Assembly (NCBI GenBank): GCA_045124505.1
Contig: JBGVLZ010000090.1
Location: 24,507 to 88,506 of the forward strand
Origin: Eubacteriales bacterium
GTDB lineage: Bacteria > Bacillota > Clostridia > Oscillospirales > CAG-272
Length of the DNA: 64,000 nucleotides
Direction of reading: 5' to 3'
Below the pieces are notes generated by a model, which was given only the letters and a program-made list of their open reading frames with translations, was not told the origin of the DNA and made no database searches. Below, one piece after another: positions 16,332-61,700 of the stretch. Positions within the stretch are counted from its first letter, which is position 1. Every line of letters starts with the position of its first letter. The position numbers were made by a program, and so were the translations under genes.

Positions 16332-16332
16332 T

Positions 16333-17721
16333 TTATGCCTCCTCGGAAACGATCTTGTTGAGTGCGTTTATATATGCTCTTATACTTGCCGCAACGATAT
16401 CAGTTGATGTTCCGTTGCCCGAATAGAGCTTTCCGTTATTGCGGAGTCTGACAAGGGCGGAGCCAAGCGCTTCTTTTCCTTCCGTTACAGACTGAACCTG
16501 ATAATCATCAAGCTCATAATGGTGTCCGATGCACTGTTCGATTGCACGGAAAGCAGAGTCAATGGGACCGTCGCCGTTGCTTACGCCGCAGATTATTTCA
16601 TCGTTGTACTTCAAAGTGATCTGTGACATGGAGTTTGAAACATTACTGCTTGTTGTTGTGTATGTTTCAAAGTGGTATGTTGACGGCGCCTGCATTGCGG
16701 AGCTTGCAATAAGTGCTTCAAATTCCTTGGCACCCACAGAGCTTTTTTTCTCGCATATCTGTCGCAGAGCCTTGTGAACATTACCGACATCTGAATCCGA
16801 AAGCTCATAACCGAGGACAGATGCCGCCTGTGCCACCTGTGCTACAGAAGAATCTGCATCAAGTAATATCTTTGTTTTTTCGCTTATTTCGCTTTCTGAT
16901 TCATATGCTGTATGATTGATGCTTGATGTCATATCATCAATGCTTGCGTGTATTTTAGTATTATTGAGCTTGATTTCAGCGCCTATCTGCGCACCGCAAG
17001 CGTTGATCGCATCGGAAATGTATCCTGTCAAAAGAGCATTCTTTCCGATCATAGCGCACTTTATTCCGTCAGCACCGCTTTTGATTGCGGAAAATGCGCA
17101 TGCAACAGCCATATTTATACGGTCTGATACCTGAACGTAAACGGGTATATTTACCGCCTCTTTTACTTTTGAAACCAACGAAGCAATATCATCAGGTGTA
17201 CAAACACCTGCATCGTCGCACAAAGTAACGATCGCCGCACCGTTTGCTTCTGCTTCTTTTACTGCTGATATGAGATAGTCCTCATCTGCTCTTGTAGCGT
17301 CAAGGGCTGAAAATTCAACATCGTCACAAACAGCTTTTGACGCTTTGATAAGCTCTGTTATCTTTTCAAGCATTTTTGTCTGCTTGACGTGATATGTGTA
17401 TTCCATCTGAATCGTTGATACAGGTAATTCAACCTGCAAACGAGGGTTCTTGGCAGCTTTTATACATTCCCATGCAACTGCAATATTTTCACAGCTGAAG
17501 CCTACGGGAACAGCAAGTGTTGCATTCTGCACATTCTGTGCAATAGTTTTATAGATTATCGTGTCTTCACGAGCCGATCTTACAGCAGGAAGCTCAATTG
17601 CATCGACGCCGATATTAGCGGCACAGTTGGCAATAGCTGATTTTTCACGGAAGAGAAGAGATACTTCACGCTCCTGTGAAAGCTTCTTGAGAGTAATGTC
17701 AGTAACATTGATTTTTTTCAT
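16333..17721 (-). CDS. LeuA/HMGL-like paralog lacking catalytic residues but retaining the LeuA C-terminal regulatory (dimer) domain
   Basis: Collinear with 2-isopropylmalate synthase. However LRDGEQ is TLKKLSQ, HxH is VSD (YVQVSDRINMAV) and GERAGN is GKNALLTG. The C-terminus (GDGPIDSAFRAIE...GNGTSTDIVAASIRAYINALNKI) matches the Leu-binding regulatory domain. Start is set at MKKINVTD behind AAAGGAG; the longer ORF-track N-terminus overlaps the T-box terminator. Confidence 0.8.
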   Translation of the reverse strand: MKKINVTDITLKKLSQEREVSLLFREKSAIANCAANIGVDAIELPAVRSAREDTIIYKTIAQNVQNATLAVPVGFSCENIAVAWECIKAAKNPRLQVELPVSTIQMEYTYHVKQTKMLEKITELIKASKAVCDDVEFSALDATRADEDYLISAVKEAEANGAAIVTLCDDAGVCTPDDIASLVSKVKEAVNIPVYVQVSDRINMAVACAFSAIKSGADGIKCAMIGKNALLTGYISDAINACGAQIGAEIKLNNTKIHASIDDMTSSINHTAYESESEISEKTKILLDADSSVAQVAQAASVLGYELSDSDVGNVHKALRQICEKKSSVGAKEFEALIASSAMQAPSTYHFETYTTTSSNVSNSMSQITLKYNDEIICGVSNGDGPIDSAFRAIEQCIGHHYELDDYQVQSVTEGKEALGSALVRLRNNGKLYSGNGTSTDIVAASIRAYINALNKIVSEEA

Positions 17722-17766
17722 TTTTGAAACTCCTTTCAAATGTAAATGTAAAAGTGATCTTACCAA

Positions 17767-18000
17767 CAAAAAAACGCTTCCGTCTCCTTGTTGAACCAAA
17801 GAGACGAAAACGAAAATAATCACAGTTTCCGCGGTACCACTCTTCTTCATCCCGCACGGGATGCACTTTAGATGCTATCACATCTTAACTCTGTCACGGG
17901 AGTTTCCCGTCTGCCACTACTTGATATTTTCATGCCAGCCGCTCCGCGGTGAGTTCAGCAAAATTTTCTCAGTGTCTTGCACCGCCCGACACCTCTCTGT
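17767..18000 (-). promoter_or_regulatory. T-box riboswitch, specifier CUC (Leu)
   Basis: Read on the minus strand: AGAGAG...GGTGCAAG stem I, then the specifier-loop context GAA-CTC-A (plus 17950-17956). The T-box sequence is AGAGTGGTACCGCGG (plus 17829-17840). The terminator is CGTCTC..GAGACG plus a U-run (17767-17806). Confidence 0.85.
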
Positions 18001-18050
18001 ATGAAAAAAGCTTTGCGTACTATTCCGCATCCTTGCGTTTATTGCAAGCT

Positions 18051-39979: not shown

Positions 39980-40235
39980 TAGATTAATAGGTTATGATGA
40001 AGGCAGTACGGTAGGATCAATGTTTACAGAGAGCCGCATAATGGTGCAAGTGCGGTAACAAATTTTACCTGAAGAACACTTCGGAGCCTGCGGAAGAACG
40101 CCTTTTGGTTATTAGAACCGCACGTTGATCGCGAAAAGATTTAATGAAGAGGGCCGTTTTACGGTCAATTTGGGTGGTATCGCGGAAGAGGAGCCTTTCG
40201 TCCCATATTATGGGGCGGAAGGCATTTTGTTTTTC
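39980..40235 (+). promoter_or_regulatory. T-box riboswitch, probable specifier AAC (Asn)
   Basis: AGAGAG (40028-40033)...GGTGCAAG. The specifier context is CTGAAG-AAC-A-CTTCGG (AAC at 40075-40077). The T-box sequence is AATTTGGGTGGTATCGCGG (~40168-40186). The terminator GCCTTTCGTCCC/GGGGCGGAAGGC is followed by a T-run. Confidence 0.85.
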
Positions 40236-40291
40236 TTCCGTATAAAATGATTAAAAAAGAAAATATTTTACTAAAAGGAGTACAATATATT

Positions 40292-42067
40292 ATGCTTAGA
40301 ACACACACTTGTAATGAACTCGGTATAAATAATATCGGGGAAAAAGTAACCCTTACAGGCTGGATGGATACTGTGCGTGACCACGGAGGCGTGCTCTTTG
40401 TTGACCTTCGTGACCATTACGGAGTAACACAGATCGTTCTTTCCGATGATTCGCTTATCGCAGGCATCGCAAAGGAAACAGTTATTCTTGTTGAGGGTGT
40501 TGTTTCCAAGAGAGATGAAGAAACAGTAAACCCCAAGATCGCAACAGGTCTTATCGAAGTGAAGGCTGAAAAGGTTGAGGTGCTTGGTCCCTGCCAGCTC
40601 GGACTTCCTTTCGAAATCGATACATCAACACAGACAAGAGAAGAGGTAAGACTTAAGTACAGATATCTTGACCTTCGTAACCGCAAGATACACGATAACA
40701 TCGTGCTTCGTTCAAAGATACTCAGCTATCTCCGTTCCCAGATGGAAGATCTCGGATTTTTGGAAATACAGACACCTATTCTTACAGCTTCATCCCCTGA
40801 AGGCGCAAGAGACTATCTTGTTCCCAGCCGTAAGCACAAGGGCAAGTTCTACGCTCTGCCTCAGGCTCCTCAGCAGTTCAAGCAGCTTCTTATGGCATCG
40901 GGCTTTGACCGTTACTTCCAGATAGCACCTTGCTTCCGTGATGAGGATGCACGTCAGGACAGATCACCCGGTGAATTCTACCAGCTCGACTTTGAAATGT
41001 CCTTTGCAACACAGGAGGACGTATTTGCAGTTGCTGAAACTGTTGTATATAACACATTTACAAAGTTCTCTGACAAGAAGGTATCAAAGCCTCCGTTTAG
41101 AAGGATCACATTTGCTGATGCAATGCTGAAGTACGGTACGGATAAGCCCGACCTTCGCAACCCCCTGGAAATAAAGGATCTTACAGACTTCTTTGCAAGA
41201 CATGAATTCCTTGATATCAACGGCAGAACAGTTCCGTTCAAGAATAAGCTTGTACGCGGTATCGTTGCAAACTACCTTGTGAAGAAGGACGGTGAGGGCG
41301 ACGGTAAAAAGGCGTTTGAAAAGGCTATCGACACATATTCAAGAAGCATCGGAATGAAGTTCGGATGCGGATATATAACACTTGAAGGCGATGATTTCAA
41401 AGGTCCTATTGCAAAATTCCTTACAGACGAACAGAAAAAAGAGCTTTGCGAGATATGCGGCGTAAAAGAAGGCGACTCCATCTTCTTCATCAGCGACAGC
41501 GCTTCTGTTATCGACCGTCTTTCCGGCGAAATGAGAACATGGATCGGTAACGAGCTTGGACTTATCAAGGACGATTCCTTTGAATTCTGCTTCATTGTTG
41601 ACTTCCCGATGTATGAACTCAACGCTGAAACAGGCAGAATTGACTTCACACACAACCCCTTCTCAATGCCCCAGGGCGGTATGGATGCACTTCTTAATAA
41701 AGATCCGCTTGAAATATTTGCTTATCAGTACGATATCGTATGTAACGGTGTTGAGCTTTCTTCAGGTGCTGTACGTAACCACAACCCCGAAATAATGAGA
41801 AAAGCGTTTGAAATTGCAGGTTACGGTGAGGAAGACCTCAAGGCTAAGTTCGGCGCGCTTTACACGGCGTTTGCATACGGTGCTCCCCCTCATGCAGGTA
41901 TGGCGCCCGGCGTTGACAGAATGATAATGCTTATTGCAGGCGAAGAAACAATAAGAGATGTTATCGCATTCCCGCTTAACGGAAATGCACAGGATCTCAT
42001 GATGGGCGCACCGGGCGAGGTTACGGAGCAGCAGCTTCGTGAGGTTCACATAAAAGTTAGAGATTGA
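40292..42067 (+). CDS. aspS: aspartate--tRNA ligase (probably non-discriminating)
   Basis: Class IIb motifs (FYQLDFEMSF, GVELSSGAVRNH, GAPPHAGMAPGVDR). Start is at MLRTHTCNELG. It lies in an operon with gatCAB. Confidence 0.93.
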   Translation: MLRTHTCNELGINNIGEKVTLTGWMDTVRDHGGVLFVDLRDHYGVTQIVLSDDSLIAGIAKETVILVEGVVSKRDEETVNPKIATGLIEVKAEKVEVLGPCQLGLPFEIDTSTQTREEVRLKYRYLDLRNRKIHDNIVLRSKILSYLRSQMEDLGFLEIQTPILTASSPEGARDYLVPSRKHKGKFYALPQAPQQFKQLLMASGFDRYFQIAPCFRDEDARQDRSPGEFYQLDFEMSFATQEDVFAVAETVVYNTFTKFSDKKVSKPPFRRITFADAMLKYGTDKPDLRNPLEIKDLTDFFARHEFLDINGRTVPFKNKLVRGIVANYLVKKDGEGDGKKAFEKAIDTYSRSIGMKFGCGYITLEGDDFKGPIAKFLTDEQKKELCEICGVKEGDSIFFISDSASVIDRLSGEMRTWIGNELGLIKDDSFEFCFIVDFPMYELNAETGRIDFTHNPFSMPQGGMDALLNKDPLEIFAYQYDIVCNGVELSSGAVRNHNPEIMRKAFEIAGYGEEDLKAKFGALYTAFAYGAPPHAGMAPGVDRMIMLIAGEETIRDVIAFPLNGNAQDLMMGAPGEVTEQQLREVHIKVRD

Positions 42068-42084
42068 TTTTAAGGAGTGGAAAT

Positions 42085-42366
42085 ATGGATAGAAACACAC
42101 TCAGAAGACTTGAGCTTCTCAATCAGCTCAGTTTGACAGAAACGCAGAAAGATGAAGTTATATCGTTTTTTCAGGACAGAGAAAAAGACGCTGAAGTTCT
42201 TGAAAATATAGACACCGCCAACGTGGAACGTATGGTACACGTAATGCCTATTATGACGGTAGTGCGTGAGGATATCCCCTCACAGCCGTTTTCACGTGAC
42301 GACCTTCAAAAGGGTGCACCCGAAACCGACGAGGGATATTGGTGCGTTCCCCGTGTTGTAGAATAA
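42085..42366 (+). CDS. gatC: Asp/Glu-tRNA amidotransferase subunit C
   Basis: 93-aa protein between aspS and gatA. AAGGAG RBS. The typical GatC tail is present (...APETDEGYWCVPRVVE). Confidence 0.85.
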   Translation: MDRNTLRRLELLNQLSLTETQKDEVISFFQDREKDAEVLENIDTANVERMVHVMPIMTVVREDIPSQPFSRDDLQKGAPETDEGYWCVPRVVE

Positions 42367-42379
42367 GGAGGGTATTCAG

Positions 42380-43546
42380 ATGATATATACAGCGAAAAAA
42401 GATGTTAATTCCGCTTGCAAAATAGTGGCGGAGGATATGCTCCTTACAACTGATATGCCTACAGCAGCAGGCTCAAAGATGCTTGACGGTTATATGAGCC
42501 TTCTTGAAGCAGAAGTGCTGACAAGACTTAAAAATAAAGGTTATGGTGTATGCGGAAAAGCTGACGTAGGTGAATTTGCCATTGACCTTTTAGGTGAGAC
42601 TTCATATAACGGTGCAAATACAGCGGACGGAAAAATTGTAAATTCATCTGCTGAAATACTGAAGAAAAATGAAGCCGATGCGGTCATCGCACTTGATGTT
42701 AACGGTGCAGTACGCCGTGCCGCAGCGCAGAACGGTCTTGTAAGTGTCAAGCCCACATACGGAACTGTTTCACGTTACGGAACAATTCCCGTTGCTTGCT
42801 CAGGCGAAACAGTGAGCGTTATGGCAAAGAATGCCGATATGTGCCGCAAAATTCTTGATGATATTGCAGGACACGATAACAAGGACGGCACAAGCCTTCC
42901 CGAATGTGAAATAGCTAAAAAGGCTGATGTGAAGTCTATAAAACGCATAGCAATTATAAATGATATGATGGCTGATGTTTCCGATGACATCAAAGCAAAC
43001 ATTGATGATGCTTGTGCAAAGCTCGGAGTTGAAACGGTGAAGATCGACAGTTCTGTAATTGCCGCATCACGTGCTGCCTGGAACATTCTTATGAGTGCGG
43101 AGCTTTGCAACAATGTTTCAAGATATGACGGTGTAAAGTACGGACACAGAGCCGAGAAGTTCTTAGGAATTGATGAGCTTTATACAAACAGCCGTACAGA
43201 GGCTTTCGGCGAACTGCTTAAAACTGCAATAATTTTCGGTTCGGAAACACTTTCGACAGAAAATTATATGAAGGTATATGATAAAGCACTTCGTACACGC
43301 CGTGTAATTGCAGAGGAATTTGCAAAGATATTTGCAGAATTTGACGCTGTGATGATCCCCGCTTGTTCAAAGGCTTTCTATACGGAAGATGATGTAAAGG
43401 CGGATAAATACATTTCTTACAAAGAAAACTTCTATACAGCACCCGCATCGATCACGGGACTTCCTGCGGTCGTCGCACACGGTGTACAGCTTATAGGCAA
43501 GGCTTTTTCCGAAAATGCATTGCTTGAGCTTGTATCAAAGCTTTAA
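42380..43546 (+). CDS. gatA: GatA-like amidase-signature protein, N-terminally short and lacking the Lys/Ser(nucleophile) catalytic residues
   Basis: Collinear with GatA (TAAGSKML, VKPTYGTVSRYG, SRYDGVKYG, FGSETLS, ASITGLPAV). It is only 388 aa. IKDN is AEDM, GGSSGGS is VNSSAEI and DTGGSIRQPAA is DVNGAVRRAAA. Confidence 0.8.
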   Translation: MIYTAKKDVNSACKIVAEDMLLTTDMPTAAGSKMLDGYMSLLEAEVLTRLKNKGYGVCGKADVGEFAIDLLGETSYNGANTADGKIVNSSAEILKKNEADAVIALDVNGAVRRAAAQNGLVSVKPTYGTVSRYGTIPVACSGETVSVMAKNADMCRKILDDIAGHDNKDGTSLPECEIAKKADVKSIKRIAIINDMMADVSDDIKANIDDACAKLGVETVKIDSSVIAASRAAWNILMSAELCNNVSRYDGVKYGHRAEKFLGIDELYTNSRTEAFGELLKTAIIFGSETLSTENYMKVYDKALRTRRVIAEEFAKIFAEFDAVMIPACSKAFYTEDDVKADKYISYKENFYTAPASITGLPAVVAHGVQLIGKAFSENALLELVSKL

Positions 43547-43563
43547 AGGGAGGTATAACGGCT

Positions 43564-45006
43564 ATGAAATACGAAACAGTCATAGGACTTGAAGTACATG
43601 TTGAGCTTGCAACACAGTCCAAAATTTTCTGCTCATGTTCGGCACATTCATACGGTGCAGAGCCTAATGAGCATGTATGCCCCGCTTGCTGCGGTATGCC
43701 GGGTATGCTTCCCGTTGTAAACAAAAGAGTTGTTGATTACGGTATGAAGGCAGGGCTTATGCTCGGATGCGATATTAACCGTGTAACGACATTTGACAAA
43801 AAAAGCTATTACTATCCCGACCTTCCCGCCGCTTATCAGACAACGCAGTGGTTTGCGCCGGTTGCCATAAACGGTCTTGTTGAAATTGAAACTTCAAAGG
43901 GCAAAAAGGGAATACGCATAAAGCAGATCCATATGGAGGAAGATGCAGGTAAGCTTGTACACGATATAAGAGAAGACACAACACATGTTGACTTCAACCG
44001 TACAAGTGTTCCGCTTATTGAAATAGTAAGCCAGCCTGACCTTTCCTGTGCGGAAGAGGTTGAAGCTTATCTTGAAAGACTGAAAAATCTGCTCCGTTAT
44101 GCAAGAGTTGCAGAGTGCGAAATGGCACACGGAACGATGAGATGTGACGTTAACCTTTCCGTCCGTCCGGAAGGAAGCGATAAGCTCGGTGTGCGTACCG
44201 AAATGAAAAATATGAACTCAATTGAAGCTATCAAGAGAGCTATTGAGTATGAAACGGCAAGACACATAGATGCGCTTGAAAACAACACAGAGGTGCTTGT
44301 TCAGGAAACAAGACGCTGGGATGATATCAAGGGCAAGAGCTTTGCTATGAGAACAAAGGAAACAGCAGGCGACTACCGTTATTTCCCCGACCCCAACGTA
44401 ATGCCCGTTGTTATCGATGATGCGTGGTTTGATGAAATCAAGTCATCGCTTCCCGAATTCCCTGAAGTAAAGCGTGCACGCTATACAGAAGAATACGGAC
44501 TCGGCGAATACGATACAGAACAGATCACAAAGAGTATTGCGCTTTGTGAATGCTTTGAAGAAGCCGCAAAGGTGTGCGGCGACGCCAAGAATGCCGCAAA
44601 CTGGATAATTTCCGAGGTTATGAGCATTCTCAACCTTCGCCAGATGACGTATGATATGCTTACTGTAAGCGGAAAGTCACTCGGTGAGCTTATTGTGCTT
44701 GTAGCGGGCGGAAAAGTCGGACGTGCAAATGCAAAGAAGATACTTGCCGCTATGTTTGACGATGCAAGCATCAACCCTGAAGAGTATGCAAACGCAAACG
44801 GATTTATCATATCAAATGATACAGGACTTATCGATAAGGTCGTAAAGACGGTTGTTGAGTCTGATCCCAAGTCCGTTGCAGACTATAAGTGCGGTAAGGA
44901 AAAAGCACTTATGGCACTGTTCGGCAGATGCATGAAAGAGCTTAAAGGAAACTGTGATCCGCAGGTCCTCAGAAAAATACTGATCGACTATATCGATAAA
45001 ATATAA
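43564..45006 (+). CDS. gatB: Asp/Glu-tRNA amidotransferase subunit B
   Basis: YETVIGLEVHVEL, CPACCGMPG and HMEEDAGK motifs plus a C-terminal YqeY-like tail. 480 aa. Confidence 0.93.
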   Translation: MKYETVIGLEVHVELATQSKIFCSCSAHSYGAEPNEHVCPACCGMPGMLPVVNKRVVDYGMKAGLMLGCDINRVTTFDKKSYYYPDLPAAYQTTQWFAPVAINGLVEIETSKGKKGIRIKQIHMEEDAGKLVHDIREDTTHVDFNRTSVPLIEIVSQPDLSCAEEVEAYLERLKNLLRYARVAECEMAHGTMRCDVNLSVRPEGSDKLGVRTEMKNMNSIEAIKRAIEYETARHIDALENNTEVLVQETRRWDDIKGKSFAMRTKETAGDYRYFPDPNVMPVVIDDAWFDEIKSSLPEFPEVKRARYTEEYGLGEYDTEQITKSIALCECFEEAAKVCGDAKNAANWIISEVMSILNLRQMTYDMLTVSGKSLGELIVLVAGGKVGRANAKKILAAMFDDASINPEEYANANGFIISNDTGLIDKVVKTVVESDPKSVADYKCGKEKALMALFGRCMKELKGNCDPQVLRKILIDYIDKI

Positions 45007-48254: not shown

Positions 48255-48283
48255 TTGACAAATTTGTTTTCGTGGTGTATAAT
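48255..48283 (+). promoter_or_regulatory. sigmaA-like promoter of T-box leader
   Basis: TTGACA - 17 nt - TATAAT. Confidence 0.6.
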
Positions 48284-48289
48284 TCGCAC

Positions 48290-48551
48290 ATGTAAACACT
48301 GTGAAGAAAACGGCAGAAAAAGGTTTTCGCAGAGAGTCGGCGGCAGGTGTAAGCCGATAAAACTGATTTCGGTAAGCCACATCATTTCTGAGTGGGAGAG
48401 GTGAAGACAGTAGCTTCTCACGTTAAGCCGCGTTAAGGCAAAGGGCTTTGTGATGAGTCCGAAGTGGCATTTTTATGCAAATTGAGTGGTACCGCGGATC
48501 ATTCCGTCTCAAGGTTGTTAAAGGACTTTGAGACGTTTTTTGTTTTCACGC
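48290..48551 (+). promoter_or_regulatory. T-box riboswitch, tentative specifier AUC (Ile)
   Basis: AGAGAG..GGTGTAAG. The lower stem CAGAAA/TTTCTG is the same geometry as the Phe leader, with AC-ATC-A immediately 5' of TTTCTG (ATC at 48381-48383). The T-box sequence is AAATTGAGTGGTACCGCGG (48479-48497). The terminator is CGTCTCAA..TTGAGACG plus a T-run (48505-48551). Confidence 0.8.
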
Positions 48552-48604
48552 CGCTTTGAACGCAGAAAGCGATCATCAAATCTTTATGAAAGGTAGATTG
48601 AAAA

Positions 48605-50893
48605 ATGGAAAAAACAGATTTGAAAACACAGCTCTCAGAGGTTGCACAGCGAATTAGAACACTTCGCGAGATCATGGGCATTTCTGCTGAGGACATGGCG
48701 GTTAAAACAGGAGTTTCAATAGAAAACTATCTTAAATACGAATCAGGTGAGCAGGACTTCAGCTTTACCTTTATTTATAAATGCGCAAAGCATCTCCGTG
48801 TTGACCCAACGGATCTTATAAAAGGTGAAAGTCCGACTCTTTCAAATTACACACTTACAAGAAGCGGTGAGGGACTTCCCATCACACGCCGTGAGGGTTT
48901 TAAATATCTGAATATGGCACCGCTTTTCAAACAGAAGACGGCAGAGCCGTTCTTTGTTGAAATGCCGTACTGTGCGGAAGACGCCGAAAAGCCTATCAAA
49001 ACGTCTACACATGAAGGACAGGAGCTGGATATTGTTATATCAGGCAAAATGAAAGTTCAGATAGGCAACCATACGGAAATACTCGGCGAAGGGGACTCAA
49101 TATACTACAATTCTTCAGCACCTCATGGCATGGTATCTCTTGATCCCGAAGGCACAAAATTCTATGCAATAGTACTCAAAAGTACCGAAGAAAAAGCAGA
49201 AAAGGATAAGTTTGAGCAGATCGTTTCACAGCGCAAAGCAAGACGTGATGCGCACAGAACAAGCGTTGCGGCGAACTTCATTGATACTGTATGCGACGAA
49301 AACGGTGTTTTGCAGTCTATATCCTTTAAAAATGAAGATAAATACAATTTTGCTTTTGATACTGTCGATGCAATTGCCGATAAATCCCCCGACAAGCTTG
49401 CGATGCTTCACATTTCAAACGATAAAACGGAAAGAAGATTTACGTTTGCTGACATGAAAAAGTATTCTGCAATGACAGCAAATTACTTCGAATCGCTCGG
49501 AATAAAGAAGGGCGACCGCGTAATGCTCGTTTTGAAGCGTCATTATCAGTTCTGGTTCTCAATTCTTGCGCTTCATAAGATAGGTGCTATTGCAATTCCC
49601 GCAACAAACCAGCTTATGCAGCACGATTTTGAATATAGATATAAAGCAGCGAATGTAAATGCTATTGTTTGTACATCTGACGGTGATGTTGCAAATCAGG
49701 CTGAAATAGCATCAAAAACAACGTCCCCTGACCTTATCAAGATCATTGTAGGCGAGAAAAAAGAAGGCTGGCTTGATTTCAACGAAGGCTTTGCAAAAAT
49801 GTCTGACGTTTACGAAAGAACTGCAGATTCTGCCTGCGGCTTTGATCCGATGCTTATGTACTTCACATCAGGTACAACAGGATATCCGAAGATAGCAACT
49901 CACGACTACAGATATGCAATCGGTCACTATATCACAGCAAGATATTGGCACAATGTCAATCCCGAAGGGCTTCACTTTACCATTTCAGACACGGGCTGGG
50001 GAAAAGCTGTCTGGGGCAAGCTGTACGGTCAGTGGCTGTGTGAAGCGGCAGTATTCACATATGATTTCGACAGATTTGATGCAAATGAAATACTTCCGAT
50101 GTTCGCTAAGTACAATATAACAACATTCTGTGCTCCCCCCACGATGTACCGCTTCTTTATAAAAGAGGATCTTTCAAAATTCGATCTTTCAAGTATTGAA
50201 TATTCTACAACTGCAGGCGAAGCACTTAACGCGGAAGTATTTGAACAGTGGCATAAGGCAACAGGTCTTACAATAATGGAAGGCTTCGGACAGACGGAAA
50301 CAACGCTCAGTGTTTGCAATCTTGTCGGTACAATGCCGAAACCGGGTGCTATGGGAAGACCGAGCCCTCTATACGACGTTGATATTGTAGATGAAAACGG
50401 AAAATCGCTTCCAGACGGTGAAACGGGTGAGATCGTTATCCATACAGATAAGCACATACCTTGCGGACTTTTCAAGGGCTATTATCTGAATGAAGAAAAG
50501 ACAAACGAGGTATGGCATGACGGACTTTACCACACGGGCGACACCGCTTGGCGCGATGAAGACGGATATTTCTGGTATGTCGGAAGAACGGATGACGTTA
50601 TCAAGTCATCTGGTTACCGTATAGGTCCGTTTGAAATTGAAAGCGTTATTATGGAGCTTCCTTACGTTCTTGAATGTGCCGTAACCGCAGTCCCCGACCC
50701 GATAAGAGGTCAGGCTATAAAAGCATCTATCGTGCTTGTAAAGGGCAAAGAGGGAACGGACGAACTCAAAAAAGAGATACAGACATATGTTAAGGAGCAT
50801 ACAGCACCCTATAAGTATCCCAGAGTTGTTCAGTTTATGGATTCACTTCCCAAGACTATAAGCGGAAAAATAAAGAGAAATGAGCTCAGATAA
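48605..50893 (+). CDS. fusion protein: XRE HTH + cupin + AMP-forming (medium/short-chain) acyl-CoA synthetase
   Basis: The N-terminal HTH_3 (IRTLREIMGISAEDMAVKTGVSIENYLKYESG) is followed by a cupin (HEGQELDIVISGKMKVQIGN...APHGM). Then comes the ACS core (FTSGTTGYPK, GFGQTET, YHTGD, GRTDDVIKSSGYRIGPFEIE, SGKIKR). Confidence 0.85.
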   Translation: MEKTDLKTQLSEVAQRIRTLREIMGISAEDMAVKTGVSIENYLKYESGEQDFSFTFIYKCAKHLRVDPTDLIKGESPTLSNYTLTRSGEGLPITRREGFKYLNMAPLFKQKTAEPFFVEMPYCAEDAEKPIKTSTHEGQELDIVISGKMKVQIGNHTEILGEGDSIYYNSSAPHGMVSLDPEGTKFYAIVLKSTEEKAEKDKFEQIVSQRKARRDAHRTSVAANFIDTVCDENGVLQSISFKNEDKYNFAFDTVDAIADKSPDKLAMLHISNDKTERRFTFADMKKYSAMTANYFESLGIKKGDRVMLVLKRHYQFWFSILALHKIGAIAIPATNQLMQHDFEYRYKAANVNAIVCTSDGDVANQAEIASKTTSPDLIKIIVGEKKEGWLDFNEGFAKMSDVYERTADSACGFDPMLMYFTSGTTGYPKIATHDYRYAIGHYITARYWHNVNPEGLHFTISDTGWGKAVWGKLYGQWLCEAAVFTYDFDRFDANEILPMFAKYNITTFCAPPTMYRFFIKEDLSKFDLSSIEYSTTAGEALNAEVFEQWHKATGLTIMEGFGQTETTLSVCNLVGTMPKPGAMGRPSPLYDVDIVDENGKSLPDGETGEIVIHTDKHIPCGLFKGYYLNEEKTNEVWHDGLYHTGDTAWRDEDGYFWYVGRTDDVIKSSGYRIGPFEIESVIMELPYVLECAVTAVPDPIRGQAIKASIVLVKGKEGTDELKKEIQTYVKEHTAPYKYPRVVQFMDSLPKTISGKIKRNELR

Positions 50894-50920
50894 GCTTATA
50901 AAATAAATAGAATCACCTGT

Positions 50921-50952
50921 GATGTGCTTTACACATTGCAGGTGATTTTTTG
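50921..50952 (+). terminator. intrinsic terminator
   Basis: AATCACCTG...CAGGTGATT hairpin plus TTTTT. Confidence 0.7.
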
Positions 50953-51101
50953 CGGATCTTTTTATTTAAAGAGAGTAGACCCACAGCATAAATAACTCAC
51001 AGTATTGTTCTTTTAGAGCTATTTATAGTCCGAATTGTATCATATATAGCCTATGTTGTCAAGTATCAAAGGGTATAATAATAAAAAAACTCGGAGAAAT
51101 T

Positions 51102-51344
51102 ATGGATACTTGTACGGCTGTAAAGAACAGAATACTGCATTTGTGCGGAGAAAAGCAGATGTCAATTTATAAACTTGCAATTGAATCTGCTGTACCTGCA
51201 TCTACAATAAAAAATATTTTGTACGGAAAAAGCACAAATCCCGGTATCGTTACGATAAAGATGCTTTGCGACGGCTTTGGAATATCGCTTATTGATTTTT
51301 TCAATACAGATGATTTTCTTTCTCTTGAGCAGGAGATAAAATGA
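51102..51344 (+). CDS. small XRE-family HTH protein
   Basis: 80-aa HTH_3-like protein (GEKQMSIYKLAIESAVPASTIKNILYG). Confidence 0.7.
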   Translation: MDTCTAVKNRILHLCGEKQMSIYKLAIESAVPASTIKNILYGKSTNPGIVTIKMLCDGFGISLIDFFNTDDFLSLEQEIK

Positions 51345-52689: not shown

Positions 52690-52892
52690 TAAATTCGAAC
52701 CTTTGGGAATTCAGTGAAATCGTTCACTTTCACTCACGGCGAAATAATTCACTTGGTGAATTGTGAATTTGATGCTGCCGCATCAAGTGAAATTAAATCC
52801 ACCAACTCGCCGTCGAGGCGAATTTCACACGCCGCAGGCGTATTTCATATTGCAAAGCAATATTTCATCCACCCGTAAGGGTGGATTTAATT
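52690..52892. repeat. array of ~7 different short hairpins separated by (A)TTTCA(C/T)/GAAAT spacers
   Basis: Hairpins read directly: AGTGAA..TTCACT, AATTCAC-TTGG-GTGAATT, TGATGC..GCATCA, CGCC..GGCG, ACGCC-GCA-GGCGT, ATTGC-AAA-GCAAT, ATCCACCC-GTAA-GGGTGGAT. Confidence 0.55.
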
Positions 52893-52928
52893 GAAAATGA
52901 CAGATTCCTGTCGGAATCTGTCATTTTC
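52893..52928. terminator. 16-bp perfect hairpin directly 3' of tRNA-Thr (terminator for the minus-strand tRNA)
   Basis: GAAAATGACAGATTCC-TGTC-GGAATCTGTCATTTTC. Confidence 0.6.
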
Positions 52929-53004
52929 TGGAGCTGCTAGACAGAGTCGAACTGTCGACCTCATCCTTACCAAGGATGTGCTCTGCCAGCTGAGCCATAG
53001 CAGC
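52929..53004 (-). tRNA. tRNA-Thr: tRNA-Thr (anticodon GGU), CCA-encoded
   Basis: The minus strand GCTGCTATGGCTCAGCTGGCAGAGCACATCCTTGGTAAGGATGAGGTCGACAGTTCGACTCTGTCTAGCAGCTCCA folds as a cloverleaf. It has a 7-bp acceptor, a D-arm GCTC/GAGC with GG, anticodon loop TTGGTAA, and T-arm GACAG-TTCGACT-CTGTC. Confidence 0.9.
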
Positions 53005-55666: not shown

Positions 55667-55737
55667 TTTGGTATCTGTATAAAAAATATCATATGGGAAA
55701 TAATTCTTATATTGAAATGAAAGAAGGACCGCGCGAT

Positions 55738-58700
55738 ATGAAAAAAGCTCTTCATATAAAACTTAAAAAACGTGATGGATTTATAAGGGAAAACTGTTCG
55801 TTCAGCGAAGAAATATCAAATAATTACTATTTTATAAATGAAAAAATAAGGTATGCGGAAAAAGAAACAAAAAGTGCGTTTTTTCCTCCTGTTTACCATA
55901 TGAAGAATATTTCATCGCTTCTTAAAAGATACGAATATTCAATATCGGAAGGCGAGTTTTATGCGGAAATAAAGCACATGAACTTATCTGACGGCGAGCT
56001 GAAAAATCTTTACACCCTCATAATATGTGCATGCGTGCGAGAGCTTTTTGAAATATGCCGAAAAAAGAACACCACTTCGCTTGACGGCAAGGTAATATCA
56101 TTTATGCGAAGGAGTGAGTTTTTCGACTACAAGCGTTTTTTTATTTCATTAAGCGAAACCGAAAAACTGCTTTTAAAGTACCGAGATTACGATATAAGCG
56201 ACGAAAAGACAAAAGCGCAGTACCGCTATTATCTTGAAAAATATGCAAACAAAAAGAAAATGTCACCGTGTGATGCACTTAAAAGTCTGTCAGGCTGTGA
56301 TATTACAGAACTGCTTTTAAAGGATCAGCATCCGATAGCAAAAGGAATATATTTTCCTGTAATATTAACCGTCTTTTTCTTTTTTGCGTTGGCTTTGTAC
56401 TGCCTTGTTTTAATTCCGTTTTCGTTTTTTGCGCTCATTCCATACGCTTTATGTCTTTTTCCGCTTTACGAATGCAGTGTTTATCTTGTAAATTATTCGT
56501 ATTCAAAGCTGTTTGTTCCGTTTTCAAAGCCGAGCATAAAAAGACAGGAAATTCCCGAAAATGTCAGATGTACGGTCGTTATAACCTCGCTTTTGGGATG
56601 TGAGGACAAAGAGCTTTTTTCCAAGCTTGAAAAATATTATCTTTCAAACAGACGTGAAAATCTCACATTCGGTATACTTGCCGACTTGCCCGACTGTGAT
56701 TCACCCACATGTGAAAACGATGAAAGGATATTGAATTTTGCTGAAAAAGAAACAAAACGGCTGAACGAAAAATACGGTAATGTTTTCTATTTTTTCTACC
56801 GTGAGCGTGAATATTCCGCAAGCGAAGGAAGATTTACAGCGCCCGAAAGAAAGAGGGGAGCTGTTGTTGAGCTTTGTAAGCTGTTAAACGGAGAAAAAAA
56901 TAAAATAATCACGCTTTCCCAGGCGGTGGAAAATAAGCTTCACGGCACAAAATATCTTATAACACTTGACAGTGATACACAGCTTCCACCGTATGAGGCT
57001 GAACGAATGATATGCACAGCGGAGCATCCTGCAAATCTTCCCGTCTATGATGAGGAAAAACACAGAGTTATAAGCGGCCACGGAATATTACAGCCGGGTG
57101 TGGAAACTTCACTGGAGTCATCGCTTAAAAACGCTTTTTCGCTTCTCAGCTGCGGCGGTGTCGGAGTTCAGATATACAGATACGCAAGGTTTGATATATA
57201 TGAGGAAATATTCAAGCAAGGCATATTTTGCGGCAAGGGAATAATAAATACATCTGTTTTTTGTAAAGCTGTCGAAGGAATGTTTCCCGATGAAAAAATA
57301 CTGTCGCACGATGTACCCGAGGGGTGCTTACTTAATTCGGGAATGATTCCTGATATGACATTATACGACAGTACCCCATCTAATGCCGTATCATATTACA
57401 AACGTCAGAACAGATGGATAAGGGGAGATATACAGACTTTTCTTGCTTTTTGCGGGAAATATATAAAACACAAAAAGTTTAAGGTGAAAAATCCTCTGAC
57501 ACCGCTTGACAAATATAAACTGTTTGACAACGTAAGACATGATATGACACCTGTTTTTGCGCTTTTTGCAATGATATCGGGTGTGTTTTTTGACCGCCGT
57601 ATTTGTGTGGGCACCTCTGTATTTTCGCTTTTTTATATAACAGTGCCGTTTCTTGTGTCATCTTTTGAATGTGTCGTGTCAGGTGCTTTTGGGGTAAGAC
57701 GTAAGTTTTATTCTTTTACACTTTCATCGTTCTGGCATGGATTTCTCAGCTTTTTAACCCGCCTGTCATCACTTGCCAACGAAGCGTATACATCACTTTG
57801 CGCTGTCATCACTGCGGTGTGGAGATATAAAATAAGCGGTAAAAATCTGCTTGAATGGATAAGTGCCACGGGGGCGGAAAAAATATCCGCAGGCGGTATT
57901 TTAAAGTACTGCTTATGGGGAGCTTTTTCGATTTTGACAGGCATTCTGTTTTTGTTTGTTCCTTTCGGTATTTACAGATCGACGGGTATTTTATTTATTT
58001 TATACCCGTTTGTTATGTATGCACTTTCAAACAAAAGAAAAAATGCAAAAAAGACGGTGAGGGAAGATGACAAAAAGAAAATTTATTCATATGTCCACGA
58101 TATGTGGCGGTATTTTTCAGACAATTTAAACGAAAAAAGCGGATTTTTACCGCCTGATAATGTTTCGTTCTCCTCGGGTGTAAAGGTTGCGGAAAGAACA
58201 TCACCTACAAATATAGGGCTTTATCTCGTAACACTTCTTGCTGTATACGATTTCGGACTGATCGGAGTGGAAGAACTGTATGAAAAATGCGAAAAAACAT
58301 TAAAGACAGTCGAAAAACTTAAAAAATACCGTGGAAATTTATATAATTGGTATGACACGCAAACGCTTAACACACTTGACGGTTTTGTATCTTTCGTTGA
58401 CAGCGGAAATTTTTTATGCTGTCTTGTTTGCCTGAAAGAGGGGATAAAAGAGCTTCCCGAAATGCTTCCCTTATTACCTGCTGTCGAAAAGCTGATAGAA
58501 GAAACGGATCTTTCGTGTATGTTCGATGAAATCCGAAATATGTTTTATATCGGACTTGATGAAAACAGCGGTGTTACAAAGCAGAATCATTATGATATTT
58601 ATATGAGCGAGGCAAGAAGTGCCGACTACTATGCAACTGCAAAAGGAATGACAAGCCCCGGGGCTTTAAGCAGTACTTCAAGAACGCTGATAAATAAGTC

Positions 58701-61700
58701 GGGACACATCGGACTTGCATCGTGGGGCGGTACAGCGTTTGAATATTTTATGCCTCCGCTGTTTATGCCGACACCTGAAAATTCTCTGCTTTACGAAGCG
58801 CTTGAATTTGCATATCTTTCGCAGATTTCATACAAGGCTTCATCAAAAGGCGGGGAAGAGGTTTACGGCATATCCGAATCGTGTTATTTTGAATTTGACA
58901 CAGAGATGAATTATCAGTATAAAGCACACGGTGTACCGTCATTGGGACTGAAAACAGGACTTGCCGATGATCTTGTTGTAAGCCCGTATTCATCATTTTT
59001 GATGCTTTGTATGGGAAGGACACCGCTTGAAAATCTCGAAATGCTTAAAAAATATAATGCATACGGCGTATACGGATTTTACGAAGCCGTTGATTTCACC
59101 AAAAGCCGTGTCGGTGACGGCTATGCTGTAGTAAAGTGTTTTATGGCGCACCACATAGGTATGAGCATTATAGCGTGTGCAAACTTCATATTTGACAATA
59201 TATTTGTAAAAAGATTTACAAGCGACGGTTATGTAAGGTCTTCTTTGTGTCTTTTATCTGAAAAAATACCGACAGATACAGCGCCGTACAAATCACAGAA
59301 AATATATGAAAAGCCTGCACTTCCCACATACAGAAACACATGGGAGAATAAAACACCGCAGTCGGGCGTTATATCAAATTCTATTCTCCGATGTGACATA
59401 ACAAATGACGGTGATGTTTTTTTGCACTACGGCGATGTTATGCTGTTTGATGACGGCTTCGGTAAACTTAAAATAGATGCTTACAAAAACGGAAAATTCT
59501 ATAATCTTTTGGGTGAAAATAAAGGTGTATGTGACGGAACTGTAGGTGAGTTTTCAACGTTTGACACAGAAAAATATATTGCAAGTGCAAGAGTTACCGT
59601 ATCAGATGACGCAAATGTTTTTTGTGCCGAGTGTGCATTTGATGACGATACAAAGAGCCTTATTTCATTTTCTCCCGTGTGTACTTCCGAGCGTGAGTAT
59701 TATGCACATAAAAGCTACGCAAGGCTTTTTATAACGGCAAAAATGAGTGACGGTGTGCTTATTTTAAAAAGACAGGGAAAACGCCGTTTTTATACCGCTG
59801 TGACCGTGTGCACAGAAAAGGGCATATGTCCGTTTGAATATGAGATCTCAGGCGACAATGTTTTACCGTATGACGGTGAAAAATATATGCTTGACAGTCT
59901 TGAATCGTCTTTGATAAATACCGAATATGTATGTCCTGTAACGCCGTTTGTTATCATAAAATCACAGAAAGACCGTATAAGGCTGTTGTTTGCAGCAGGT
60001 AAAGACGAAGAAAGTGTGTTACAAAGTATTCGTAATGCGGTTTTTCAAAACACGCTGACACAAAAAAATAAAGACGGTATAAAGAAATTATATTCTTCCG
60101 TGTTTCACAGCACATATTACGATGAAAGTATCGTTTCCTCGCTTTTGTCACGTCATAGCTTTGAAAGTGTAAGAAAAACACGCTCACATCTTGATATAAG
60201 CACGCTTTGGAAATACGGAATATCGGGTGATCTTCCCATTTTAACGCTTGATATGACAGATGAGGTAATGCTCAAAACTCCGCCTGAAAAGCTTTTAAAA
60301 GCACTATATACGCACAGAGCTATGCTTATAAGGGGGCACAGATATGATACGGTAGTTCTATACAAAGAGGAAGATAAATATCATCGAAGTGTGGAAAAAA
60401 GGCTGTTTGAGATATTCAAGCTTGCAGGTGTCATGCCTCTTGTGGGGCGGTATGGCGGTATATTTGCATTAACGTGCAGTACTGAGGAAGAAAAAGCGCT
60501 GTTTTTAGATATGTCATTTTATCCGGAAAAGGAAACAAAAAATGTTTTACCGGGTGAGGAAGTGCCTGCGTTATTCAGCAACGAAAGATCATATAAAGTC
60601 AGCGATGGCGGTGTGGAGATAACAAACGGCAACGCAGTCTTACCCTGGAGCTTCATATATGCAAATGAAGGCTTCGGCATACTTCTGACACAGAATTCTT
60701 TAGGGTTTACGTGGTATGAAAATTCCCGAATGGGAAAATTGACACATTTCGAAAACGATATTCTGAATATGAACAGCGAAGAAGTATTTTTGGAAATAAA
60801 CGGCAAACTATACAGCCTCACAAAATGGGCTGAAAAAACGGTATTCGGTTTTTCACAGGCGCAGTACAAAGGATGTATATCGGGTATTTATTACTGTGTT
60901 TATGTCACGTGCGACAAAGAGGGGGCAAAAAAGCTTGTAAAGGTTACTCTTACAAATCACAGCGGAAGAAAAATACCGTGTGAAGTATCATACAAAGCAA
61001 ATTTTGTTCTTGGTGAGTCGGAAAAGAAAACAGGCAGACTTTTTGCAAGAAGGGAAGAAAAAACACTTAAGGTCATAAATGCTTACGGCGGCGAGATAAG
61101 AGAATGTGTCCTGCATTCTCCCGAAGGCAAAATATCGTCGTTTGACGGCACAAACGGCTGTGTAAGATGTCCCGTTAAGCTTTACCCCGATTCATCGGGA
61201 ATTGTACACTTTTCCCTCGGTACAGGTGATGCAACGGCGATTTTATACAACAAGGCACTTAAAAAATATAAATCAGCAGTTGAGGAATATCTTAATGTGT
61301 ATGAGTTGCATACAGATAATAAAAGCTTTGATGTTATATTCAATAAATTTGCGAAATATCAGGCACTTTACTGCCGTGTATATGCAAGATGCGGATTTTA
61401 TCAGAACGGCGGTGCATACGGCTTCCGTGACCAGCTTCAGGATATGATATCGGTGATGTACTCATCCCCCGAAACCGCACGTGAGCATATACTCAAATGT
61501 GCATCTCATCAGTATGAAGAGGGCGATGTCACGCACTGGTGGCACACAGGACAAGCGGAGAAGGGAATACGTACAAGATGCTCCGACGATATGCTGTGGC
61601 TTATTTATGTTTCTGCAAGATATGTACGCTTGACAGGTGATGACTCGGTGCTTTTTACACCCGTCACGTATTTAAGATCTCCTGCGCTTAAAGACGGAGA

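Follow-up and report, generated by a model that had tools for sequence, protein, structure and literature searches.

Organization of the locus

In the window, i.e., the whole 64-kb stretch of DNA that was analysed, a T-box leader RNA is followed by a gene encoding a 762-residue protein, in which an HTH-cupin module is joined to an acyl-CoA synthetase. The gene and its downstream hairpin comprise the following features.

48605 to 50893, forward strand: open reading frame of 762 aa, PuuR-like HTH-cupin module plus short branched-chain acyl-CoA synthetase (one uninterrupted frame, Pfam, homologues)
48653 to 48817, forward strand: XRE-type HTH domain, residues 17-71 (Pfam HTH_3, HTH_19 and HTH_31 above cut-offs)
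48941 to 49177, forward strand: cupin barrel, residues 113-191 (Pfam Cupin_2; AF2 pLDDT 94.5)
49247 to 50890, forward strand: ANL acyl-CoA synthetase domain, residues 215-762, including the catalytic K755 (PDB 3ETC match)
50000 to 50002, forward strand: codon of G466, the pocket position that splits Ile-type (Gly, 60 of 60) from Val-type (Ala, 29 of 29) proteins
50914 to 50951, forward strand: hairpin CACCTG...CAGGTG followed by a T run, likely the terminator of a monocistronic unit (identified by eye)

Pfam recognizes four domains in the protein, in the order HTH_3 (17-71), Cupin_2 (133-189), AMP-binding (257-627) and AMP-binding_C (677-755), each of which passes its cut-off, and homologues with the same four domains align with it end to end, with up to 88% identity. 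A hidden frameshift, with the HTH-cupin region encoded by a separate gene, is ruled out by the single frame and by these homologues, so that the single fusion gene of the preliminary description stands. The same description had regarded such a fusion as unusual, a view that has to be abandoned: the four-domain architecture is kept in thousands of protein clusters and the fusion is matched in more than 595 stretches in species-representative genomes. Split pairs of HTH-cupin and ligase genes occur in other lineages. Database names for the fusion protein are generic, either "AMP-binding protein" or "cupin domain-containing protein". The hairpin downstream of the gene was not reported by the terminator scan; we propose that the transcription unit in the window is a monocistronic operon.

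The leader RNA and its specifier codon

Upstream of the gene, the leader comprises the following elements.

48255 to 48283, forward strand: sigma-70 promoter TTGACA-17-TATAAT (12 of 12 consensus matches)
48292 to 48514, forward strand: T-box leader RNA, from Stem I through the antiterminator (Rfam RF00230)
48299 to 48394, forward strand: Stem I with K-turn, compact specifier loop, AG bulge and distal loop (alignment A3, 56 leaders)
48381 to 48383, forward strand: specifier codon AUC (Ile); A48384 and the lower helix strand TTTC (48385-48388) come next (Rfam alignment and orthologous leaders)
48479 to 48497, forward strand: T-box sequence AAATTGAGTGGTACCGCGG (sequence and Rfam alignment)
48505 to 48545, forward strand: intrinsic terminator, stem 48505-48535 plus U run (terminator scan and RNA fold)

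A covariance-model search with RF00230 matched the leader over the full model (1-219) with 97.7 bits and an E-value of 2.9e-20, the margin over the gathering score of 93 being only 4.7 bits. Stem I contains the AG bulge AGAGAG (48331-48336) and the distal loop GGTGTAAG (48346-48353), and the UGGN bulge is present in AGUGGUACCGCG at 48485-48496. Within it, UGGU at 48487-48490 would pair with a tRNA 3' end ACCA carrying the discriminator A73. The terminator consists of a 12-bp stem (48505-48535) followed by TTTTTTGTTT, with a minimum free energy of -22.1 kcal/mol and a z-score of -2.9. The 5' side of this stem shares bases with the 3' strand of the antiterminator (48483-48511), which makes the two structures mutually exclusive. 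Promoter, Stem I, T-box and terminator, which had been read earlier as a complete leader, were thus all recovered in place, and the leader is predicted with confidence to be a genuine transcription-attenuating T-box. In related genomes, when Rfam was applied at the gathering threshold to 14 loci, only some of the orthologous leaders were recovered; therefore, leaders were identified by motif and by structure-aware alignment instead. The T-box motif AGTGGTACCGCG is kept in 65 of 80 orthologous upstream regions, and strong promoters equivalent to that of the window sit upstream of orthologous leaders. The T-box is absent from 11 orthologues, which belong to rumen Ruminococcus.

The specifier codon lies in an internal loop of Stem I, with a single base between it and the lower helix on its 3' side. 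Two helices bracket it in alignment A3, in which 15 of 17 predicted Stem I pairs show compensatory changes; in the upper helix, two of three pairs carry 31 and 27 double compensatory changes. The lower helix had been proposed to be CAGAA/TTCTG and has to be redrawn: GAAA (48306-48309) pairs with TTTC (48385-48388), and its variants across leaders are GAAG/CUUC, GGAG/CUCC, GAGG/CCUC and GAAA/UUUC. The codon itself, ATC at 48381-48383, had been assigned correctly, since the alignment to RF00230, the check suggested at that stage, places ATC in the specifier position and the 56 aligned orthologous Stem I elements agree with it. The same column holds ATC in about 60 orthologous leaders and GTA or GTC in 29 paralogous leaders. 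A register shifted by +1 would read TCN (Ser) and was rejected, as the Val-type leaders would then read TAG and UGGU implies a discriminator A73; a register shifted by -1 would read YAT, which is not conserved. Hence, the predicted specifier is AUC, for isoleucine. The GAA that commonly precedes the codon had been noted as missing, and this holds across the 56 aligned leaders: the 5' side of the specifier loop is reduced to AC (AG in Val-type leaders), and the S-turn (loop E) AGUA...GAA is not present in any of the 56. On these alignments, the missing GAA and S-turn appear as a family trait, a variant compatible with T-box membership. The base 3' of the codon is A in the window and a pyrimidine, often C, in about one third of the orthologous leaders.

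The ligase domain and its acyl pocket

The ligase domain matches PDB 3ETC with 50% identity over 548 residues (E 2e-189), and the Pfam scores for AMP-binding and AMP-binding_C are 201.5 and 79.8 bits, respectively. The ANL core motifs TSGTTGYPK, GFGQTE and YHTGD are conserved, and K755 aligns with K609 of Acs. The best NCBIfam family is MbcS (NF047394), with 432.5 bits against an equivalog cut-off of 850 bits, so that MbcS is the closest named family, to which the ligase does not belong. Position 466, which aligns with the acetate-pocket residue Val310 of Acs, is the sole ligase residue that separates the Ile and Val classes completely. Of the four positions matched to the acetate pocket of Acs, the other three (K467, A537 and G562) do not vary, and Gly takes the place of Acs Trp414, just as it does in PDB 3ETC. 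Indeed, the four residues aligned with the Acs pocket (G, K, A, G) are identical in the ligase and in PDB 3ETC. The presence of Gly466 in Ile-type and of Ala466 in Val-type proteins fits a C5 and a C4 acid, respectively. The enzyme of PDB 3ETC, MacsMa of M. acetivorans, reportedly prefers 2-methylbutyrate. From the 50% identity and the comparison of the pockets, the substrate of the ligase in the window is most likely 2-methylbutyrate. Among related activities, MbcS accepts 2-methylbutyrate and isobutyrate as substrates and rejects acetate (PMC10026030), and rumen methanogens use 2-methylbutyrate for isoleucine synthesis (PMC10658910).

Val-type paralogue and gene neighbourhood in relatives

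The neighbourhood was surveyed in 80 fetched orthologous loci. About 30 of them show the order Ile T-box, fusion gene, Val T-box (GUA/GUC) and second fusion gene; in the loci with the Val-type paralogue, a P-loop gene and a VorB-type 2-oxoacid:ferredoxin oxidoreductase operon come next. The continuation on the same strand, found in 32 of the 80 loci, comprises a CbiA-like P-loop gene, a delta ferredoxin and the alpha, beta and gamma subunits of the oxidoreductase, whose alpha subunit passes the NCBIfam VorB model (546 bits, cut-off 399). In some loci the stop codon of the Val-type gene is overlapped by the start of the next gene. The proteins with a Val specifier fall into one exclusive clade (29 of 29), and the nearest labelled neighbour of a protein is of the same specifier class in all 89 cases. 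The module adjoins a Leu-T-box operon with a LeuA-like gene in 11-13 loci. Related gut and rumen Clostridia thus often have a Val-sensing twin, and the putative carboxylating enzyme, beside the Ile-type gene. Within the 64-kb window neither a VorB-type oxidoreductase nor a Val-type paralogue was found; the proposed downstream steps of the pathway are therefore based on relatives rather than on this genome.

Proposed function in isoleucine synthesis

The Val-T-box paralogue, the linked VorB-type enzyme and the identity to PDB 3ETC, which all go beyond the preliminary description, together point to the salvage of branched-chain acids into branched-chain amino acids. We consider it probable that the gene encodes a 2-methylbutyrate-CoA ligase that is induced by isoleucine starvation and feeds reductive carboxylation to isoleucine. 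According to this scheme, transcription would start at a strong constitutive promoter and produce a leader of some 315 nt. As long as tRNA-Ile is charged, formation of the terminator (48505-48535) would bring transcription to a halt. With uncharged tRNA-Ile(GAU), the anticodon would pair with AUC in the compact specifier loop, and the free ACCA end would bind UGGU and stabilise the antiterminator, so that RNA polymerase would read into the open reading frame. The 550 C-terminal residues (Macs/MbcS-type) would then convert 2-methylbutyrate, ATP and CoA to 2-methylbutyryl-CoA, which a VorB-type oxidoreductase would carboxylate reductively to 3-methyl-2-oxopentanoate. Transamination of the latter would yield isoleucine, resulting in the salvage of a branched-chain volatile fatty acid of the gut or rumen.

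Another use of the same product is the synthesis of lipids: the ligase would supply 2-methylbutyryl-CoA as the primer of anteiso fatty acids, as MbcS does in S. aureus. Isoleucine starvation removes the normal source of this primer, and an Ile T-box would then induce a salvage for the membrane. MbcS, the best-scoring NCBIfam family, has exactly that role (PMC10026030), and the linked oxidoreductase could also run oxidatively. However, the joint induction of ligase and VorB-type enzyme upon starvation for tRNA-Val or tRNA-Ile would be counterproductive if keto-acid precursors were consumed, and the adjoining Leu-T-box operon with its LeuA-like gene provides an amino-acid context. We therefore regard this role as unlikely; the use for lipid primers and the use for isoleucine are not mutually exclusive.

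A propionate-CoA ligase, feeding reductive carboxylation or a formate-lyase condensation to 2-oxobutyrate at the entry of the canonical isoleucine pathway, is very improbable: some anaerobes do make isoleucine by way of propionyl-CoA (PMC7476758) and the NCBIfam propionate-CoA ligase model matches weakly (195 bits), but a Val-T-box paralogue would make no sense, the Ile-type pocket is larger than the Val-type one where C3 against the C4 of isobutyrate predicts the reverse, Gly occupies the position of Acs Trp414, as it does in PDB 3ETC, and the linked enzyme fits the VorB model.

The N-terminal HTH-cupin module

In the AF2 model of the N-terminal domain, helices are found at residues 6-73. The cupin residues H136, E140, D164 and H174 are invariant in alignment A2 and in 100 fusion proteins, and R16 and R21 are invariant in 100 of the 100 fusion proteins checked. 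Over its full length, the N-terminal domain can be aligned with HTH-cupin proteins of about 185 aa that stand alone (alignment A2); the genes of some of these lie directly upstream of unfused orthologous ligases, and one is divergent from a P-loop and ferredoxin cluster. Of the 19 positions at which the Ile and Val classes can be told apart, 16 fall in this N-terminal region, the class-specific residues being clustered in the cupin. We propose that this domain is a conserved, class-specific putative small-molecule sensor.

Whether the sensor would act through DNA is the weakest step of the interpretation. A role as a DNA-binding second layer of control is slightly favoured, its chances being even or a little better, and autoregulation by the predicted HTH domain is plausible. 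The best fold match in Foldseek is the HTH_3 regulator 1Y9Q (E 4e-13), three Pfam HTH models score above their cut-offs, and the two arginines are invariant. The N-terminal domain of the window has no match at an E-value of 0.001 or better to the PuuR equivalog (NF007408, cut-off 211 bits), but its stand-alone relatives match this model over the full length with 29-38 bits. Moreover, the 11 loci that lack a T-box would still need some regulator.

The module may instead not bind DNA at all, a possibility to which we give a little less than an even chance. The HTH-like helices would then scaffold a metal-binding cupin, and all transcriptional control would be exerted by the T-box. The cupin would be an allosteric sensor of the end product or substrate of the ligase, or a second catalytic site as in HppE, HEPD and MPnS. 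The profile of the N-domain family matches HppE over its full length (E 6e-13), H136, E140 and H174 aligning with H, E and H of the HppE motifs HaGnEF and vPHaF, which are the iron ligands of HppE; PuuR, a true repressor, nevertheless shares the H..E..H pattern. HppE, Psf4, HEPD and MPnS rank just behind 1Y9Q in Foldseek, and HppE-type enzymes illustrate that the same fold need not bind DNA. In the split forms, the gene of the module overlaps that of the ligase or almost touches it, a hint that the two proteins are stoichiometric partners, and the clustering of class-specific residues in the cupin is consistent with this role. The search for a conserved palindrome or operator across 94 promoter regions, which found none, points in the same direction.

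Two candidate operators were rejected. The perfect palindrome ACAAATTTGT over the -35 box, considered as an autoregulatory site, probably reflects the extended -35 element TTGACAAAT, an element that recurs, together with an A/T tract upstream of it, in the window's Leu T-box promoter; similar promoters precede most orthologous leaders. The second candidate, ATACG..CGTAT, occurs in two loci (L019 and L086) but was not found again at other promoters.

Significance

That isobutyrate, 2-methylbutyrate and isovalerate are required or used by cellulolytic rumen bacteria and by many gut Clostridia is a long-standing observation, and labelling demonstrated decades ago that branched-chain amino acids are made via reductive carboxylation. 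To our knowledge, the genes that activate branched-chain acids in these bacteria, and in Oscillospirales the T-box control of such ligase genes, have so far been without assignment. A literature search of limited reach, on which the claim of novelty is based, returned nothing relevant. The T-box codon serves here as a built-in label: the Ile and Val specifiers sort two paralogues whose acyl pockets differ by a single methyl group. Together with the linked, putative carboxylating enzyme, this label singles out genes that can be tested directly for a role in a pathway of nutritional and agricultural relevance. Besides, an unusual gene class is added to the T-box regulon, and the question is raised of the function of an HTH-cupin module fused to an enzyme already under riboswitch-type control. 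As a more tentative extension, the gene may belong to a widespread and so far unassigned regulon in gut and rumen Oscillospirales, in which Leu, Ile and Val T-boxes would each switch on a dedicated ligase fusion and a VorB-type carboxylating enzyme, rebuilding branched-chain amino acids from branched-chain volatile fatty acids. In that case the fused PuuR-like domain would bind DNA and sense a ligand as a second layer of control, and the whole protein would be a BirA-like enzyme-regulator behind a riboswitch. We hold this extended picture to be possible rather than probable.

Comparison with known systems

The leader resembles the class I transcriptional T-boxes of Firmicutes (ileS, valS, leuS; RF00230) in its K-turn, AG bulge, distal loop and UGGN bulge, in the codon placed one base above the lower helix, and in the competition between antiterminator and terminator. 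Usual T-box codons are AUC for Ile, GUA for Val and CUC for Leu. Unlike these T-boxes, the leader has a compact specifier loop without S-turn, the post-codon base is often C in its orthologues, and its target is an acyl-CoA synthetase fusion (and a VorB-type operon in relatives) instead of a gene for a tRNA synthetase or a transporter, or an ilv gene.

Among the enzymes, MacsMa of Methanosarcina acetivorans (PDB 3ETC) is 50% identical to the ligase domain over 548 residues, with the same four pocket-aligned residues, but it is an archaeal enzyme without the HTH-cupin extension, and we know of no T-box that controls it. Staphylococcus aureus MbcS represents the top NCBIfam family for the ligase domain, whose score is about half the equivalog cut-off (432 versus 850); in contrast to the proposed role of the fusion protein, MbcS feeds fatty-acid primers, as a single enzyme for both acids and without a fused sensor. 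The regulators of the PuuR and 1Y9Q types, composed of HTH_3 and cupin, have the same two-domain layout and length as the N-terminal domain, whereas the similarity is weak, below the PuuR cut-off, and the module of the window is covalently joined to an enzyme. In BirA, PutA and NadR, a metabolic enzyme is likewise fused to a DNA-binding domain (predicted in the present case), and BirA is also an adenylate-forming ligase. Their N-terminal domains are, however, not homologous to that of the window, where riboswitch-type control is already present. Finally, the reductive carboxylation of branched-chain acyl-CoAs by VOR (2-oxoisovalerate:ferredoxin oxidoreductase) in rumen and gut anaerobes differs in that the window itself lacks vor genes, and it finds its counterpart in the VorB-type four-subunit enzyme encoded directly downstream in relatives.

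The T-box leader and its specifier

All the leader parts listed in the preliminary description (promoter, T-box and terminator) were found ahead of the fusion gene, and the Rfam T-box model aligned over its entire length.

Features of the T-box-controlled unit in the window
48255-48283 (+): perfect sigma-70 promoter (promoter scan)
48292-48514 (+): T-box leader (Rfam, 97.7 bits against a gathering score of 93)
48479-48497 (+): T-box sequence AAATTGAGTGGTACCGCGG, read in the sequence
48505-48545 (+): terminator, 12-bp stem and U run (terminator scan, RNA fold), its 5' strand being common to the antiterminator
48605-50893 (+): fusion ORF in an uninterrupted frame, with HTH_3 (residues 17-71), Cupin_2 (133-189), AMP-binding (257-627) and AMP-binding_C (677-755)

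The Rfam alignment of the leader assigned the specifier to AUC (48381-48383), the next base being A, while the same model gave CUC (Leu) and AAC (Asn) for the two other T-boxes of the window. For comparison of the leaders, 80 orthologous loci were fetched. AGTGGTACCGCG lies directly upstream of the fusion gene in 65 of them, and the string YY-ATC-[A/C]-CTTC-YGAG is kept among the leaders carrying it; a minority of orthologous leaders have GTA or GTC in the specifier column. In the consensus structure of 56 Stem I sequences, compensatory changes were observed at 15 of 17 pairs overall, and the codon stands one base above the lower helix and two bases below the upper one, in which two-sided pair changes occur in 31 and 27 sequences. 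The lower helix is GAAG/CUUC, with the variants GGAG/CUCC, GAGG/CCUC and GAAA/UUUC, and not CAGAA/TTCTG as initially drawn. The ATC codon proposed from the sequence was nevertheless correct, the Rfam and Stem I alignments agreeing on it. Two other registers were ruled out: a +1 shift turns the codon of the common GTA-G leaders into TAG, and the -1 column is not conserved. The missing GAA before the codon, flagged in the preliminary description, is a trait of the whole leader subfamily, throughout which the AGUA/GAA S-turn is absent. On the 5' side of the specifier loop (48310-48311), the same alignment shows GAAG-AC-GG in leaders of the Ile type (ATC) and GAAG-AG-(G/T)G in those of the Val type (GTA/GTC), i.e., a class-specific base opposite the codon. 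Besides, from UGGU in the T-box bulge a discriminator A73 is expected, consistent with tRNA-Ile and tRNA-Val. We are highly confident that the window T-box carries an isoleucine specifier.

The unit is monocistronic, with unrelated genes on both sides. Between the terminator hairpin of the fusion gene and a small HTH_26 gene (51102-51344), a strong promoter-like site (51034-51062, minus strand; TTGACA-17-TACAAT, extended TG, 11 of 12 matches) is oriented toward the 3' end of the former gene; an antisense transcript could start there, or the match could be fortuitous.

Two classes of fusion proteins

As read in the preliminary description, the HTH, cupin and ligase domains belong to a single gene. 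Indeed, homologues of at most 88% identity align end to end with an identical four-domain architecture, which excludes a hidden frameshift and makes the single-gene fusion virtually certain. Its presentation as unusual was not borne out, since this architecture was found in all of the best 120 of 8000 protein matches and species-representative genomes yielded at least 595 matching stretches. Carriers are mostly gut or rumen Oscillospiraceae, Ruminococcus, Acutalibacteraceae and Christensenellaceae. About 30 of the 80 loci contain a tandem pair, composed of an Ile T-box, a fusion gene, a Val T-box and a second full-length fusion gene, the Ile member being invariably first. A census of 108 fusion ORFs from the 80 loci plus the window protein gave 60 ATC leaders, 29 GTA/GTC leaders, 11 plain promoters only and nine truncated upstream sequences. 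The T-box-less loci (L012, L019, L022, L024, L026, L028, L031, L036, L037, L062 and L066) are mostly rumen Ruminococcus MAGs; in L019 (3877-4000), the region ahead of the gene holds just a consensus promoter with a 5' UTR of about 95 nt. The Val-labelled proteins form one exclusive clade (29 of 29), and in 89 of 89 cases the nearest labelled neighbor carries the same label. The window protein belongs to the Ile type, whose leader is also found in P0040, a very abundant cluster of 3113 member sequences.

The N-terminal HTH-cupin module

Residues 1-200 are highly conserved, with a predicted fold of five helices and a cupin barrel (pLDDT 94.5). A search of 1.84 billion representative proteins yielded 2537 relatives of this domain, many of them stand-alone proteins of 182-195 aa aligning end to end at 30-50% identity. 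R16, H136, E140, G147, G163, D164 and H174 are invariant in the alignment with stand-alone relatives, some of which give weak full-length matches to PuuR. Split versions occur in other lineages, with HTH-cupin genes of 184-190 aa and intergenic gaps too short for a T-box.

Fetched loci with split versions
L086, 1465-2342
L087, 363-2077
L088, 6001-8227
L089-L091

Two stand-alone HTH-cupin genes immediately precede an unfused ligase of 550 aa, overlapping it by 4 nt in one case and separated from it by 20 nt in the other; the fusion hence joined an older gene pair. The L087 ligase, a 382-aa fragment and the sole one compared, is 49% identical to the window ligase domain. In L086, the HTH-cupin gene is divergent, 87 nt from a P-loop and ferredoxin cluster.

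We lean slightly toward a ligand-sensing, DNA-binding layer. Three HTH models above their cut-offs and the best fold match, the HTH_3 regulator 1Y9Q, count toward DNA binding, which is also favored because the 11 T-box-less loci still need a regulator. A near-equal reading is that of an allosteric or metal-cupin unit instead of a DNA-binding one: the family profile gives a full-length match to the Fe-cupin enzyme HppE, H136, E140 and H174 align to the H, E and H of the HppE cupin motifs, the iron ligands of that enzyme, and no conserved operator was found across 94 promoter regions. DNA binding by this domain is an even call. Of the 19 positions separating Ile-type from Val-type proteins, 16 fall in the N-terminal region, where identity between classes is 49%, against 68% in the ligase. 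This concentration and lower identity argue for a class-specific ligand.

Ligase substrate and pathway

The ligase domain matches the Methanosarcina acetivorans acyl-CoA synthetase of PDB 3ETC (E 2e-189, 50% identity over 548 residues), an enzyme reported to prefer 2-methylbutyrate. The best NCBIfam family is MbcS (432 bits, under the cut-off of 850), which activates 2-methylbutyrate and isobutyrate, is poor on butyrate and isovalerate, and leaves acetate unused (PMC10026030). In the comparison with E. coli Acs, W309, V310, T311, V386, W414 and K609 landed at their published numbers, which supports the Acs sequence used. The four acetate-pocket residues of Acs align with G466, K467, A537 and G562 of the window protein, and 3ETC has identical residues at all four positions. 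Across 100 fusion proteins, K467, A537 and G562 are invariant, whereas position 466 varies: Gly is found without exception in the 60 Ile-type proteins and the 11 without a T-box, and Ala without exception in the 29 Val-type ones. The one extra methyl of the predicted Val-type pocket mirrors the one-carbon gap between isobutyrate and 2-methylbutyrate; a pairing of propionate (Ile) with isobutyrate (Val) predicts the opposite pattern. The enzyme is probably an acyl-CoA ligase for short branched-chain acids, chiefly 2-methylbutyrate.

In 32 of the 80 loci, the fusion gene(s) are followed on the same strand by genes for a CbiA/ParA-like P-loop protein, a 67-aa two-cluster ferredoxin (delta) and the alpha, beta and gamma subunits of a 2-oxoacid:ferredoxin oxidoreductase, neighbor counts dropping only at the ends of the fetched DNA. 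For the alpha subunit, the NCBIfam VorB model scores 546 bits, above its cut-off of 399.

Examples of the full Ile-Val-P-loop-ferredoxin-VorB-type cluster
L025, 829-9726
L072, 3915-10268
L064, 9-6366

In L064 and L072 the Val-type gene and the P-loop gene overlap at the stop of the former, so that the oxidoreductase is expressed from the Val T-box. The P-loop/oxidoreductase cluster begins 55-85 nt past a single Ile-type gene in L015 and L021, and lies about 1.1 kb further downstream in L048. Neither vor genes nor a Val paralogue were found in the 64-kb window. Uncharged tRNA would induce the ligase and the VorB-type enzyme together, a co-induction that is reasonable for a route leading from acid via acyl-CoA and 2-oxo acid to amino acid, i.e., for reductive carboxylation. 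Isoleucine synthesis from 2-methylbutyrate has been documented (PMC10658910). Isoleucine salvage by this route is a reasonably likely purpose of the system.

Other T-boxes and features of the window

Additional features
13872-18042 (-): region of a second T-box, specifier CUC (Leu), 124.5 bits (Rfam)
16333-17850 (-): LeuA-like gene behind it
13872-16331 (-): next, an 818-aa fusion of a xylose-isomerase-like TIM barrel (AP_endonuc_2) and an acyl-CoA ligase
39985-45006 (+): region of a third T-box, specifier AAC (Asn), 111.9 bits (Rfam)
40247-42067, 42380-43546 and 43564-45006 (+): aspS, GatA-like amidase and gatB behind it
52817-53004 (-): Gut-1 RNA (86 bits) adjoining a tRNA with anticodon GGU (Thr)
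55693-62691 (+): very large ORF, 2332 aa

In 11-13 of the 80 related loci, the Ile-type fusion is directly preceded by a homologous LeuA-like/TIM-barrel-ligase pair. With its Leu T-box, the window pair may form an arm of the same module for leucine or isovalerate, and the third T-box appears to control the indirect Asn-tRNA pathway. The Gut-1 RNA beside the tRNA agrees with the window stemming from gut Clostridia.

Comparison with known systems

To our knowledge, based on a limited literature search, T-box control of a branched-chain acid ligase (and, in relatives, of a VorB-type operon), an Ile/Val paralogue pair told apart by one pocket residue, and a ligase fused to an HTH-cupin module have not been described before. 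A long-known nutritional phenomenon is thereby tied to named, testable genes. Compared with known systems, the RNA is a T-box family member with a compact specifier loop and no S-turn, the N-terminal domain resembles PuuR in architecture only, and the enzyme belongs with the Macs/MbcS-type ANL ligases without being an MbcS equivalog.
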